From an uncultured Candidatus Saccharibacteria bacterium (GTDB lineage: Bacteria; Patescibacteriota; Dojkabacteria; SC72), in contig CAYMBI010000001.1 in the NCBI GenBank assembly GCA_964388655.1, forward strand, positions 1 through 30,011: 30,011 bases of DNA, read 5' to 3'. The translations under genes were made by a program, and so were the position numbers. A model generated the notes under the pieces. The model searched no databases. It saw only the letters and a program-made list of their open reading frames with translations, and was not told the DNA's origin. Of this stretch, positions 1,136-30,011 are shown one piece after another. Position 1 is the stretch's first letter; each line of letters begins with the position of its first letter.

Positions 1136-3343
1136 CTATTTCTTTAATCCAAGCTTTTCAAACATATTGCTTGAGTCACTACTTCCAATCTCTTGGCCTT
1201 TATATATTGGTAGAGTAAAAGAAAATGTACTTCCCTTGCCTATCTCACTCTCGACCCATATATCACCACCCATAAGTCTTACAAGACCAAATGTAACATA
1301 CAAACCAAGTCCCGTACCACCAGGTCTCACTATTTCAGAACCAAGGTAGTTATCTATTCTATAGAACTTCTCTCCTAATTTAGGGATATTTTCTTTTGGT
1401 ATTCCCTTACCTGTATCTTGTATTGTTACAGTAACAAAATTATCATCATATTTGGTACTTACTGTGACTGAACCTCTCTGTGTATATTTAATTGCGTTGC
1501 TAATTAAGTTGTTAAGTATTTCAACTACCCTTACCCTATCTGCATACACATTTGGAGTATTTGGATTTACATTGTTATTAAATTGGATTCCCTTTTCTTC
1601 AACATCTATCTCATGACCATGAGCTGCCATCTCTATTTCTGCTTTAATATCTACATTGTCATGTCTTATCTCAACCTTGTTCCCCTCTAATTTTGCAGAT
1701 GTAAGTAATGTATTGATTAATCCTATTTCAGTTTCTACAGACTTTTTTATTCTATCAATATATTTTTTAAATTCTGCAGGGTTACTCTCTATGAATTTTT
1801 CAAGAAGTTCTACATTAAGCTTTACAACTGTAGCTGGTGTTCTTAATTCATGCCCCATTATATCTATCATATCTGCTTCTTTCCTTCTTGCTTCTTCTAA
1901 TTCTTTAACCTTAATTTGTAATTCTTTGGTTTGTTCATTTACTTTCTCTTGAAGAGACTTATTAAATACTTCAACTTCTTGATACAAGAAAGCTCTTTGC
2001 AAAGAGATTGCCATAGAAGATCCAACTGATCTAATATATTCTAAATCCTGAATAGAGTATGTTTTTGCTGCTTTACCATCTTCAATTGTAATATACACAT
2101 TCCAGTCAATTAGGCTAGATTTTTGGATTGGAAAAATTACTCGAAGATTATATTTCTCAAAGAGATGTCTGAATGATTCTTTCCCATCAACATGCATTAG
2201 CTCATCTTTTATTAATGGTTGTTTAATTGTCTCTAAGAGTTCTAAATCTGCAATATCATTCAACGAAAGCCCATACGATTTAAAATCCTCCAATATTTTA
2301 CCGTTTTTCGTTATCAAAATCTTTGTTGGAGAATTAAATATTCTTTTAAGTAAATTTTGAGTTCTATCAAGAATTACACTTACATCTAAGGTATCATTGA
2401 AAACAATGATTAGTTTCTCCTTTTCCTCTTGCATATCAATATTGTAATCGTAAAAAACTTTCTTAACTATTACATCTAATTTCTCATTCGCAAATACAAA
2501 AAGGAAAACAAAAAGTGCAGAGTACAAATATCCTGTTACCAATGCTTCGGGTTCATATATTCCACCCCAAACGATATTTTGCACAAAGGAAACAAGATGA
2601 AATATTGCATATGGTACAATCGAGATAAAGAGAACATATACCAGTTTACTCACTATTAGTTTTGTACTTGGAAATCGATATCTTAAAATTGCATAGTAGG
2701 TTGCAAGGATGAAAAAAATTAGGCTTAATGGTCCTAATGCTCTAATTTCGTTAAATTCAAGTATTGGAAATATTAAGTTTGTACTAAAGGAACTAAGTAT
2801 AGAAAGCATAGAACCAAGGAAGATGTAGAATATTTGTGCTTTTGTTACAAGGTTCTGCTCTCTTTTGTAAGCTGCGAAGAACAAGATTGCAGAGTAACAG
2901 AAAATTATTCCTGTATAGATGACGAAATATATATTAAAGTCACCTCTAATTGATTGTAGGTGATTTTCGGAATATACAACATCCTTAACTATTCCGTCCG
3001 TAATTGAAAGAATTACAAATACAAAAGAAATAATACCCCAAAAAATCTTTCCAAGAAGAGCGTGTTTCCCTTCATAGTAAGTTCTTACGAAAAGATAGTA
3101 CCAATATCCAATAAGGGCAGAGGTTACAAATGAAAATCTAGACGCCCAAAGAGCCACTGTGTGGTTCTGGCTAAAGAGATCTGTAACTAAAATAGATAGT
3201 GACCAAAGTATAACCCAAAAGACTAATATCGAGAAGGTTTGCCTTTTCTCTGCATTAGAGAGATTCTTTTCTTTAAGTACTTTGTAAATAATAAAAGTAC
3301 AAAGGAGAATGATTATAGATAACGCTATAAATCCTAATATCAT
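1136..3343 (-). CDS. Membrane sensor histidine kinase: N-terminal multi-TM (HisKA_7TM-like) region, GAF-like region, HisKA, HATPase_c
   Basis: H-box GHELRTP, N-box LNNLISNAIKYT, G1 QDTGKGI and G2 GGTGLGL. The first ~290 aa are polytopic membrane. There is no receiver domain. Confidence 0.92.
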   Translation of the reverse strand: MILGFIALSIIILLCTFIIYKVLKEKNLSNAEKRQTFSILVFWVILWSLSILVTDLFSQNHTVALWASRFSFVTSALIGYWYYLFVRTYYEGKHALLGKIFWGIISFVFVILSITDGIVKDVVYSENHLQSIRGDFNIYFVIYTGIIFCYSAILFFAAYKREQNLVTKAQIFYIFLGSMLSILSSFSTNLIFPILEFNEIRALGPLSLIFFILATYYAILRYRFPSTKLIVSKLVYVLFISIVPYAIFHLVSFVQNIVWGGIYEPEALVTGYLYSALFVFLFVFANEKLDVIVKKVFYDYNIDMQEEKEKLIIVFNDTLDVSVILDRTQNLLKRIFNSPTKILITKNGKILEDFKSYGLSLNDIADLELLETIKQPLIKDELMHVDGKESFRHLFEKYNLRVIFPIQKSSLIDWNVYITIEDGKAAKTYSIQDLEYIRSVGSSMAISLQRAFLYQEVEVFNKSLQEKVNEQTKELQIKVKELEEARRKEADMIDIMGHELRTPATVVKLNVELLEKFIESNPAEFKKYIDRIKKSVETEIGLINTLLTSAKLEGNKVEIRHDNVDIKAEIEMAAHGHEIDVEEKGIQFNNNVNPNTPNVYADRVRVVEILNNLISNAIKYTQRGSVTVSTKYDDNFVTVTIQDTGKGIPKENIPKLGEKFYRIDNYLGSEIVRPGGTGLGLYVTFGLVRLMGGDIWVESEIGKGSTFSFTLPIYKGQEIGSSDSSNMFEKLGLKK

Positions 3344-28007: not shown

Positions 28008-28211
28008 TTAATCCTCAATAACAATGGCTGTAACAGGACACATACCATGGGCTTCAAGAACCTTTTCTTTTAATTCCTCAGGTATCTCTTTTCCTTTCCA
28101 TTCTTCTTTAACATCAACCGTTCCATCCTCTTTCATTTCAAATACTTCAGGACAGATAGCTACACATGAACCACATGCAATGCATTTAGTATGATCTATT
28201 GAAACTTTCAT
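28008..28211 (-). CDS. Single-cluster ferredoxin
   Basis: CIACGSCVAICP and C-terminal CPVTAI; 67 aa, acidic. Confidence 0.92.
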   Translation of the reverse strand: MKVSIDHTKCIACGSCVAICPEVFEMKEDGTVDVKEEWKGKEIPEELKEKVLEAHGMCPVTAIVIED

Positions 28212-28264
28212 ATTCTAGTTTCTCAATTTATATACCCAATTTTTTCAAAAATCAGAGAAGATAT

Positions 28265-28433
28265 CAACTGTCGGGAAATGGAATCCGTTCTTGCTACGGA
28301 TTCCATATCAGTGGAAATTACTTTCACACCGCCCGAGCAGTTGTTTGACTAAAGAAAACGTCTTTTCTTTAGTACTTTGTACTAGCGATCAACTAGTACA
28401 AAGGTTAGGTCGGTTTAACAAAAAACCGACCTA
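28265..28433. repeat. Array of inverted repeats: four perfect 11-bp hairpins plus a three-way junction
   Basis: Stems 28278-88/28296-306, 28348-58/28363-73, 28375-85/28393-403 and 28406-16/28423-33. Closing helix CAACTG-TCGGG/CCCGA-G-CAGTTG (28265-75/28332-43). Confidence 0.85.
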
Positions 28434-28446
28434 GTTGGCCGGTTTT
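28417..28446 (-). terminator. Intrinsic terminator (minus strand)
   Basis: Minus-strand RNA CCGGCC-AACUA-GGUCGG followed by UUUUUUGUU; the stem needs a G-U pair that exists only on the minus strand. Confidence 0.7.
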
Positions 28447-28482
28447 AATTCGTCGTATGACGCAAGGCGTTGTTACTACCTA

Positions 28483-28511
28483 TTTATATCAAATATTACG
28501 TATTTTCTCAA
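28483..28511 (-). promoter_or_regulatory. sigma70-like promoter TTGAGA-N17-(TGa)TATAAA
   Basis: -35 at 28506-28511 overlapping the upstream stop codon, 17-nt spacer, extended -10 at 28483-28491. Confidence 0.45.
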
Positions 28512-28912
28512 CTCAAAAACCTTACGAACCCTCTCTCTCCAACAATTTCAAAATTGAAATCTTCAGCTAAGTCAGAAAGTAAAACACCATTACTTGCTAA
28601 CATCTCACTAGGTCTTACCCCTCCATCTAAAGCCTCCTGTACTTCATCTGTTGGTATACCCAATGTAATACTTAACATATTAACCATCTTAGACCTGTTA
28701 GAATCAAATCTACTGTACTGCCTATCTACATCAAAATTGTAATCATATGCATACTCTTCTTCCGATAGAGGAACCTTAGTAATATATTCTGATGCTACAA
28801 CGAACTTAGGAACTCCTATGTCTTGTTGTAAAGGATTGAAAGCAGTAAAAAGGGAAAATCCAAATACTGAAATGAAGATTGAGAGCATAACTACTCTTTC
28901 TTTGTTTGTCAT
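28508..28912 (-). CDS. Hypothetical membrane-anchored/exported protein
   Basis: N-terminal TM (VVMLSIFISVFGFSLFTAF) and an acidic helical C-terminal segment; likely start ATG 28912 (the track start is TTG). Confidence 0.7.
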   Translation of the reverse strand: MTNKERVVMLSIFISVFGFSLFTAFNPLQQDIGVPKFVVASEYITKVPLSEEEYAYDYNFDVDRQYSRFDSNRSKMVNMLSITLGIPTDEVQEALDGGVRPSEMLASNGVLLSDLAEDFNFEIVGERGFVRFLS

Positions 28913-29225
28913 ATTAAAGATACATGACAATTTATTTATAACTATATGATATATATATTAAATATGTATTACCAGCATTTTTAAGTTATAGATAAGCTAT
29001 ATTGATTAATTGAAATCTATTACAAACCTTTAATAAGGGGAAATCATGAATTAGCACTTAAGGCTATAAGCTGATGAATTCCTCTTTGTGATTACAAATA
29101 ATTAAACACATAAACAATAAAAAGAAATAAGGACTCATAGCGTAATTCATAGCAATAAAATACAAACATTACAAAATACAATTATTGCTATATAATTACT
29201 TAATAACATCGAAATATTAAAACCT

Positions 29226-30011
29226 ATGGATCCAATTTTTGACAATGATAATACTCTAACAGCTGACCAAGAAGCAATTGTTCTACTATCAAGGGGGGAT
29301 ATGACCGAAGATATTAGACAAAAAATAAAGACGAAATCCATTTCAACCTTCTCTACAGATGACCTTATGGAGTTAGGCACACTCGGTTTATTAATTGAAG
29401 AAAATTCTCTTTTATCAACCTCCACTAAAAAGTATAGTTCATACCTTGTCCCAGATGAGTCAACAGATAAAAATTCAGGACTATATAGAATAGTTGTAGA
29501 GGATGGAAAAACTGGAATAGAAGTAATGTGCCCATTAAACCAAACTGTAAGAATTTTTAAATATGAAGACGAGATTTCTTTACAGCAAGTAAAAGAGTTG
29601 TCTTCTGACTCATCATATATTGGAAAGTTGAAATTAGCTATGGCTTTAGAAAGTGTGTGGATTAAAATTGGTTCAGAAGGAAACACAGAAGAAATGAAAG
29701 CACTCTCAGAAACTATGGAAGACCTTTTTGGTACTCCAGTTGTTTCAGGTTCAGATTTCAATAGTCTTATGGACTCACTTGAAAGCTTTACAGCGGGAGA
29801 TGATACACTCCCTGCAATTGAATATTTTATAGCTTTGAAACATTGCGAGAGAGTTAGAGAGCTTCTTGATAGTAGTTCAATTGACTTGAATGATGCTGAA
29901 GCAATTTTAGAATATTTAATTGAGAAATTTGTATTACCTACTGAGGTAGCAGCTGGTGTATTAAGAGGTTTATATAGAGATGAAAAATACACTAGTATCG
30001 TAGAAGAAGCT
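29226..30011 (+). CDS. Acidic hypothetical protein, 3'-truncated by the window edge
   Basis: Manual translation from ATG 29226: MDPIFDNDNTLTADQEAIVLLSRGDMTEDIRQKIKTK...GVLRGLYRDEKYTSIVEEA, 262 codons with no stop. The codon usage looks natural and it explains the antisense ORF 29147-29992. Confidence 0.8.
   Translation, partial: MDPIFDNDNTLTADQEAIVLLSRGDMTEDIRQKIKTKSISTFSTDDLMELGTLGLLIEENSLLSTSTKKYSSYLVPDESTDKNSGLYRIVVEDGKTGIEVMCPLNQTVRIFKYEDEISLQQVKELSSDSSYIGKLKLAMALESVWIKIGSEGNTEEMKALSETMEDLFGTPVVSGSDFNSLMDSLESFTAGDDTLPAIEYFIALKHCERVRELLDSSSIDLNDAEAILEYLIEKFVLPTEVAAGVLRGLYRDEKYTSIVEEA

Follow-up and report, generated by a model that had tools for sequence, protein, structure and literature searches.

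We analysed a 30,011-nt stretch of contig CAYMBI010000001.1 from an uncultured bacterium of the Dojkabacteria (hereafter the window), in which a preliminary description had singled out four perfect hairpins in the spacer upstream of a ferredoxin gene. The results showed that these hairpins are helices of one promoter-driven noncoding RNA (ncRNA) of ~215 nt, transcribed from the minus strand and built of two modules, A and B. Module A is an H-type pseudoknot whose second stem is an intrinsic terminator. We put at roughly 0.5 the probability that it serves as a conditional terminator, i.e. a riboswitch or a factor-dependent attenuator, which would gate read-through into module B or into protein genes. 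Gene regulation and ncRNA are barely known in the bacteria of the Candidate Phyla Radiation (CPR), which do not grow by themselves and encode very few regulators that can be recognised; here, an RNA family with promoter, pseudoknot, terminator and three-way junction is well supported, well delimited and not represented in Rfam.

The four inverted repeats (28278-28306, 28348-28373, 28375-28403 and 28406-28433, with loops of 7, 4, 7 and 6 nt) were found exactly as first described when coordinates, loops and gaps were rechecked. All four stems contain 11 Watson-Crick pairs with zero mismatches, and the last three hairpins are separated by gaps of 1 and 2 nt. The whole genome (636,992 bp in 113 contigs) was scanned for perfect hairpins with loops of 3-10 nt, which yielded 10 stems of 11 bp and 16 of at least 11 bp, four of them within this 156-nt stretch; most of the remaining long hairpins resembled ordinary A-tract/T-tract terminators. 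Since only ~0.004 such stems would be expected in a stretch of this size, as estimated from the genome counts, the cluster is far beyond chance. The 296-nt spacer folds better than its dinucleotide shuffles on both strands (minus, z = -8.7; plus, z = -9.2), and its G+C content was 0.40-0.43 versus ~0.3 in the surroundings.

A BLASTN search of the spacer against 60 relatives revealed 75-92% identity in 8 of 9 same-genus genomes and additional matches in several other genera, while the neighbouring 140-aa protein was less conserved than the spacer (38-93% identical). In the consensus fold derived from an alignment of 18 homologues, 39 of 57 pairs carried compensatory changes. Read on the minus strand, these 57 pairs contained 86 G-U cells versus 8 A-C cells, an A-C cell corresponding to G-U on the plus strand. 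This asymmetry demonstrates that selection acts on the minus-strand RNA, in the same direction as ferredoxin. A plus-strand RNA, hinted at by the single G-U pair in this genome, was ruled out by the same asymmetry together with the promoter. Thirteen of 39 sequences have G-U at pair 43-83 of hairpin H2, which would read A-C on the plus strand, and helix Pb takes a different register on the minus strand than in the plus-strand reading, with a conserved bulged U.

The promoter is of the sigma-70 type and belongs to the RNA itself. In 27 of 28 homologues, the pattern TTGNNN-17 nt-TATAAN, mostly with an extended -10 TG, was located 12-17 nt upstream of CGCCUU, and transcription in the window is predicted to start near 28479-28476. 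Neither the promoter nor the terminator, the pseudoknot or the transcribed strand had been covered by the preliminary description.

Module A comprises ~27 invariant nucleotides surrounding a variable hairpin, P1. Among 32 Dojkabacteria sequences, the joining strand J1 had an invariant CUU, preceded by ACGCC with at least 90% conservation; CGCCUU was fully invariant in alignments of 17-18 sequences, and ACGCCUU(G/A) was present in 28 copies from other CPR lineages. The segment between the conserved flanks (P1 plus a few bases) measured 14-30 nt in those lineages and once 70 nt. The module ends in a GC-rich stem-loop followed by a U tract on the transcribed strand, an intrinsic terminator with a folding energy of -13.2 kcal/mol and a shape like that of the genome's other intrinsic terminators. 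It was omitted by a simple terminator scan, because its maximal stem takes in part of the U run. In the 32 sequences, 96.5% of terminator-stem cells were paired, four pairs never varied and the U tract was invariant. The 5' arm (ACCGGCCA) was likewise sequence-invariant, with variation confined to the 3' arm, where G-U changed to G-C. Directly after the terminator, UUUUUUGUU was found in all Dojkabacteria copies.

The loop of this terminator pairs with a strand at the 5' end of the RNA. We defined PKa as the 4 nt located 4 nt upstream of ACGCC and PKb as the first 4 loop nt after the conserved CCA, and counted complementary positions in 60 sequences. The PKa/PKb pairing was present in 180 of 240 cells (75%). 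When loops were shuffled among sequences, the mean was 102.8 ± 7.1 (43%) with a maximum of 127, and none of 5000 shuffles reached 180, a count that is not a probability, the sequences being related. Slid registers gave 73-75 paired cells (~31%). At least 11 distinct, fully complementary pairs of 4-mers were observed: UAGU/ACUA (in the window), UAGG/CCUA, UAGA/UCUA, AAGA/UCUU, CAGA/UCUG, ACAA/UUGU, UCUC/GAGA, UUCU/AGAA, AGAU/AUCU, GGAC/GUCU and AGAC/GUCU. This covarying pairing between a loop and a strand outside it establishes module A as an H-type pseudoknot, in which J1, P1 and the second joining strand J2 form the long connecting loop and the terminator forms the second stem. After PKb, most copies of other lineages have a linker of 1-40 nt and Dojkabacteria have none; because of this missing linker, the top one or two terminator pairs are probably open in Dojkabacteria.

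Module B consists of hairpins H3 and H2 and a three-way junction, of which hairpin 1 (H1, here Pc) is one arm. Among 39 distinct sequences, 96.3% of its cells were paired and 37 of 44 pairs were compensatory, compared with 36-50% paired in slid controls, figures that are somewhat flattered by an alignment fitted to its own model. In the junction helices, 95-99% of cells were paired and 20 of 22 pairs were compensatory. The H3 loop carries a nearly invariant GAUC throughout the family; in this genome it reads UUGAUCG, which ruled out CsrA-type GGA loops. No promoter of module B's own was seen by eye between the terminator and H3. In four divergent homologues (L061, L062, L078 and L059), two or three of the hairpins H3, H2 and Pc share the palindromic loop UGAUCA or GGAUCA. 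Such shared loops could allow kissing or dimerisation, or could be recognised by a protein; a loop-loop interaction of H2 with H3 (kissing) through UGAUCA is possible in some clades and was rejected for the clade of the window.

The fourth hairpin, H4, proved to be an alternative pairing, since it shares 11 nt (28433-28423) with the terminator 3' arm, the loop and PKb. With an energy of -16.0 kcal/mol, it is 2.8 kcal/mol more stable than the terminator. H4 was detected in ~20 of 32 homologues, with ~64% of cells paired over the 32 sequences; a double compensatory change was found in G003 and wobbles in G005 and G009, and the hairpin was absent from sequences of the G014, G030, G047 and G017 type. 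Because it is located past the U tract, H4 would form only in read-through transcripts.

The preliminary description had treated the four stems as equivalent and proposed selection on an 11-bp geometry, with conserved stem length expected in homologues. Minimum-free-energy folds of 33 homologues did not support this. H2 is nearly invariant in sequence within the core clade and measured 11 bp there, against 3-6 bp or ~17 bp with internal loops elsewhere; H3 measured 9-13 bp, with a single 4-bp outlier in G009; H1 measured 10-13 bp or was branched; and H4 was often absent (~12 of 32 homologues). The four perfect 11-bp stems occur together in this genome only. Given that stem lengths vary among homologues, the equal length is a coincidence of this genome and not a selected constraint. 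The compensatory changes anticipated in the same proposal were observed, and the stems differ in role: H1 is an arm of the three-way junction, H2 and H3 are free-standing, and H4 is the alternative pairing.

To map the family, covariance models of module A (R1) and module B (R2) were searched against 120 genomes of the order. Both models matched the same 33 genomes, in 10 of 39 genera, with one copy per genome, and R1 added one weaker match to module A only (G043). At every locus checked with both models, modules A and B lay 8-20 nt apart on one strand. The element is thus single-copy, its stems are unrelated in sequence, and the earlier statement that this is neither a CRISPR array nor a tandem repeat was upheld.

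Module A also occurs alone. We applied pattern scans to 185,000 species genomes plus metagenomes; the loose pattern returned mostly chance matches in unrelated phyla, which were removed by filtering with R1, and a phylum-wide sample searched with R1 returned ordinary terminators only. Outside Dojkabacteria, 28 copies without module B were recovered from Amesbacteria, Gottesmanbacteria, Shapirobacteria, Chisholmbacteria, Woesebacteria and other Patescibacteria, the Microgenomates group among them, and two genomes held two copies each. A promoter was found upstream of each of the 28 copies. In all copies except that in L242, a short fragment, the nearest same-strand open reading frame (ORF) began 0-143 nt after the U tract. 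The encoded proteins were mostly small and often membrane-spanning, with no Pfam, PHROG or NCBIfam match; the exceptions were a PMR1-like P-type ATPase, a VTT/DedA protein and, further downstream, an SPFH protein. Of the first 15 copies outside Dojkabacteria, 12 had an AUG or GUG no more than 4 nt from the U tract (AUG in 9), compared with 1 of 13 further copies, so a start codon at this place is not a defining feature. Rfam searches of six loci from other lineages returned two tRNAs and nothing else.

Several of these loci showed further peculiarities. In one Microgenomates genome, two divergent copies of module A lie ~800 bp apart (L181: 654-750, minus strand, and 1535-1618, plus strand), each leading into a small membrane protein (88 and 103 aa) without known family. 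An AUG 0-3 nt after the U tract was found in 9 of the 28 copies (L091, L093, L181, L229, L233, L240, L252, L253 and L270); it opens a real ORF in some (the P-type ATPase, 88- and 160-aa proteins) and elsewhere a mini-ORF of 2-13 codons. L091 and L100 display a four-segment attenuator layout (1:2, 2:3 and 3:4) with a second terminator and 2:3 as the alternative pairing. At both loci (L091: 5970-6300; L100: 320-610), the second terminator is followed by a ~200-nt GC-rich stretch that is conserved between the two, structured-looking and without an Rfam match, which may be a different "module B".

These observations are consistent with a conditional terminator. In such a mechanism, the fate of RNA polymerase would depend on the folded pseudoknot-terminator: the enzyme would either stop at the U tract, releasing a product of ~55-60 nt, or read through; termination at this tract and its conditionality are both predictions. 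In Dojkabacteria, read-through would extend the transcript into module B, i.e. H3, H2 and the three-way junction with H1. In the read-through RNA, the terminator 3' arm would re-pair with the downstream AAACCGACC to form H4 while module A unfolds, and the four-hairpin picture would represent this alternative conformer. In the Microgenomates group, the same module A would gate read-through into the protein-coding genes directly behind it. A riboswitch or attenuator is favoured because the element occupies a 5' leader position, contains ~27 invariant nt and a pseudoknot, and has conserved sequence that runs into the terminator 5' arm, so that a conserved leader element overlaps the presumed expression platform. 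The closest precedent, which further favours it, is the hydroxymethylpyrimidine pyrophosphate (HMP-PP) riboswitch (Atilho et al. 2019, PMC6478431), whose aptamer is embedded in a sequence-conserved terminator and uses a pseudoknot with the loop. Both elements are tiny and lie in a 5' leader, with conserved nucleotides in the terminator, an extra upstream hairpin and a terminator-loop pseudoknot (PMC6478431). The differences are that the loop pairs here with the very 5' end of the RNA, that no link to thiamin genes and no alternative ON-state pairing were identified, and that the Dojkabacteria copy precedes a structured RNA, not an ORF. Identity with the HMP-PP (thiS) riboswitch was rejected, as Rfam gave no match and thiamin genes are not adjacent.

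Several findings weigh against conditional termination. H4 cannot block termination, being located beyond the U tract, and no alternative pairing ahead of the terminator was found that would suit a co-transcriptional antiterminator: by eye, J1 pairs with either terminator arm, and likewise with the RNA 3' end as a closing stem, over at most 3 bp. The largest (core) Dojkabacteria clade allows a pseudoknot of only 2-3 bp, and part of PKa in this genome may lie upstream of the true start, itself a predicted position. In Dojkabacteria, the terminator precedes an RNA instead of an ORF, and a separate promoter serves the next gene. The downstream genes, heterogeneous and mostly without a Pfam family, yielded no coherent regulon, ligand or factor, and in these genomes a shared orientation with the next gene is to some extent expected anyway.

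Going beyond conditional termination, we tentatively suggest that module A might be a new riboswitch class, a CPR-specific, terminator-embedded pseudoknot aptamer of ~60 nt that would sense a small molecule or ion and control orphan small and membrane proteins in Microgenomates and, uniquely in Dojkabacteria, a 150-nt RNA domain; we hold this to be possible but doubtful. The module A core is common to CPR classes and stands before otherwise unannotatable genes. If the riboswitch or attenuator explanation were true, it would give a handle on an as yet unnamed signal and on an orphan gene set. The element also offers a compact model for studying terminators in which the loop pairs with the RNA 5' end.

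Among the rival explanations, a trans-acting small RNA (sRNA) deserves the most weight, though we regard it as rather unlikely. Module A would then be a complete sRNA with a 5' seed, ACGCCUUG, that base-pairs with targets or binds a protein, and A plus B would be a second isoform with protein-binding hairpins, acting for example via the GAUC loop of H3. This would suit the strong promoter of its own with a terminator ~55-60 nt downstream, the invariant unpaired 8-mer near the 5' end, the single copy independent of any one neighbour gene, and an H3 loop sequence that is kept even where the H3 stem sequence differs completely. Promoter-to-terminator sRNAs with a 5' seed, such as RybB and OmrA/B, resemble module A in promoter, unpaired conserved 5' motif, hairpin and Rho-independent terminator. 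They differ in that here the 5' end is pseudoknotted to the terminator loop, sequence conservation and RNA-level covariation run past the terminator, and no targets were found: no conserved complementary target emerged, CAAGGCGU occurs only three times elsewhere in the genome, none of them resembling a ribosome-binding site, and a search of this genome with the complement of ACGCCUUG was uninformative. Outside Dojkabacteria, moreover, every copy is a 5' leader before a co-oriented ORF, and the invariant terminator 5' arm is more typical of an overlap between aptamer and expression platform. If an sRNA were nevertheless the answer, it would be, to our knowledge, an early example conserved across CPR classes. 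A boxA/boxB-like (nut-like) site appears improbable; in this reading, CGCCUUG and P1 would recruit NusB-NusE-type factors that make RNA polymerase resistant to the terminator and to Rho while untranslated RNA is being transcribed. BoxA elements protect rRNA and CRISPR transcripts, and the pyrimidine-rich CGCCUU is followed by a hairpin just after the promoter and before a terminator and untranslated RNA. However, the lineage's own rRNA-leader boxA, GCUCCUUAAAAG, matches ACGCCUU at only 5 of 7 positions, and a pseudoknot and an invariant terminator arm are not nut-site features.

The position of the RNA directly upstream of ferredoxin, on the same strand, in most Dojkabacteria might suggest that it is a 5' leader devoted to the ferredoxin-Nudix-HIT operon and responding, for example, to iron or redox state, all the more as the genes downstream of other copies include Fe/Mn superoxide dismutase and radical-SAM Elp3. 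This reading is very improbable and was largely refuted by G002: this same-genus genome, 99% complete, keeps the ferredoxin promoter and operon and lacks the RNA. A conserved ferredoxin promoter separates the RNA from the gene, other copies precede LemA, an epimerase or no gene, and module A of other lineages precedes unrelated genes. Because of this separate promoter, the G002 locus and the copies before other genes, the RNA is independent of ferredoxin. Least probable of all is a DNA-level element, raised in the preliminary description as cruciforms, a single-strand origin or a mobile-element relic and extended here to an array of operator palindromes. In its favour, this genome's stems are perfectly palindromic and GATC, itself a palindrome, occurs in some of the loops; yet the 86 to 8 wobble asymmetry favours one RNA strand, the stems are kept by compensatory changes while their sequences diverge, the element is single-copy without flanking repeats or transposase (except for an unrelated IS200-type insertion in G073), and a pseudoknot would be meaningless at the DNA level.

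The RNA did not correspond to any known family, in line with the earlier view of a structured ncRNA without a named class. Rfam 15 gave no match in the window at gathering thresholds; at E values up to 10, region 28100-28600 gave only four chance-level matches (E 2.6-6.4). ARAGORN returned nothing, and a literature search found no published description of this RNA. It is absent from Rfam; the present analysis adds its pseudoknot, the strand statistics, the non-ferredoxin contexts and the wider distribution of module A. The riboswitch aptamers preQ1-I/II, SAM-II/V, fluoride and guanidine-III are H-type pseudoknots. Module A resembles them in its compact pseudoknot, conserved joining strands, variable hairpin, 5' leader position and overlap with the expression platform; it differs in its conserved sequences, none of their Rfam models scores here (E up to 10), and the genes give no hint of a ligand. 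EutX/Rli55 and AspocR are ncRNAs under B12-riboswitch control. They share with the present RNA a conditional terminator, here a putative one, upstream of an ncRNA body, with short and long isoforms; the aptamers there are known, whereas sensor and RNA body here are uncharacterised.

Other candidates were rejected. 6S RNA was excluded by the lack of an RF00013 match and by a multi-hairpin consensus fold with a three-way junction, and RNase P RNA and transfer-messenger RNA by the genome's own copies, which sit elsewhere (contigs C84 and C27). Repetitive extragenic palindromes, miniature inverted-repeat transposable elements, insertion sequence ends and CRISPR were discarded given one copy per genome, unrelated stems and no transposase or cas neighbours. 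A retron msr-msd was dismissed, as Pfam found no reverse transcriptase domain in the 140-aa protein, the partial 262-aa ORF, ferredoxin, Nudix or HIT. Signal recognition particle (SRP) RNA, whether 4.5S or large, was ruled out, RF00169 and RF01854 being absent and the lineage lacking Ffh and FtsY. In the accompanying searches, neither PF02978 (Ffh M domain) nor PF00448 (Ffh/FtsY GTPase) was found in G000, G004 and G006, TIGR00959 did not match in G000, G004, G006, G110 and G014, and no small or large SRP RNA was found in G000, G004, G006, G007 and G014. Three of these up to five Dojkabacteria genomes are closed single contigs, SecY was easily found, 14 of 14 control genomes scored with the protein models, and the only weak ffh match in Dojkabacteria was an AAA+ ATPase. 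The SRP pathway thus seems to be missing from Dojkabacteria.

Table 1. Coordinates of the promoter, the two RNA modules and adjoining elements in the window.
Feature	Coordinates	Strand	Description
-35 hexamer	28506-28511	minus	TTGAGA; overlaps the stop codon of the upstream 140-aa ORF
Extended -10 element	28483-28491	minus	TGATATAAA; 17 nt from the -35 hexamer
Module A	~28478-28420	minus	Conserved ACGCCUUG strand, small hairpin, intrinsic terminator
PKa	28475-28478	minus	UAGU; 5' pseudoknot strand at or beside the RNA 5' end; pairs with ACUA of the terminator loop
J1	28463-28474	minus	AACAACGCCUUG; conserved single strand
P1	28451-28462	minus	Hairpin CGUC-AUAC-GACG; variable in length and sequence; 4/4 pairs compensatory
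J2	28446-28450	minus	AAUUA; conserved joining strand, UUA invariant
T	28420-28445	minus	Intrinsic-terminator hairpin AAACCGGCC / GGUCGGUUU; loop AACUA; U6 tract 28425-28420
PKb	28432-28435	minus	ACUA; terminator-loop strand of the pseudoknot
H4	28406-28433	minus	GGUCGGUUU paired with downstream AAACCGACC; mutually exclusive with T and the pseudoknot
Module B	28403-28265	minus	H3, H2, three-way junction
H3	28375-28403	minus	7/10 pairs changed on both sides; 96.4% of cells paired
H2	28348-28373	minus	Loop GACG; 9/11 pairs compensatory
Three-way junction	28265-28343	minus	Encloses Pb and Pc
Junction outer stem	28343-28332 with 28275-28265	minus	
Pb	28331-28309	minus	Conserved bulged U
Pc (hairpin 1)	28306-28278	minus	
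Ferredoxin promoter	28239-28267	minus	TTGATA-17-TGAAAAAAT, from a promoter scan; outside the RNA, marks its 3' boundary

The RNA is flanked in the window by genes for ferredoxin, a Nudix protein, a HIT protein and the 140-aa protein without assigned family. The latter (28508-28930, minus strand) carries a membrane anchor at its N terminus, matches no Pfam or PHROG family and was found in five genera of the family; it was ruled out as a partner protein, since genomes lacking the RNA encode it and it was not found in genera that carry the RNA. An adjoining partial ORF of at least 262 aa (29226-30011, plus strand) likewise has no Pfam or PHROG family. In the rRNA operons of G004, G006 and G110 (L255-L257), the 16S 3' end reads ...GGCUGAAUUACCUCCUUU, not the usual GGAUCACCUCCUU; the boxA-like GCUCCUUAAAAG was present in the rRNA leader and a second one, AGCUCUUAAGGA, in the spacer after 16S. 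In G073, an IS200-type Y1 transposase gene (L064: 1003-1446) lies directly downstream of the RNA and before a radical-SAM gene, and is probably a recent insertion. Two copies of the whole RNA-ferredoxin-Nudix locus were found in G021, on contigs C6 and C34 (L007 and L013); because one of them is nearly identical to the G034 locus, this suggests a mixed bin rather than a duplication.

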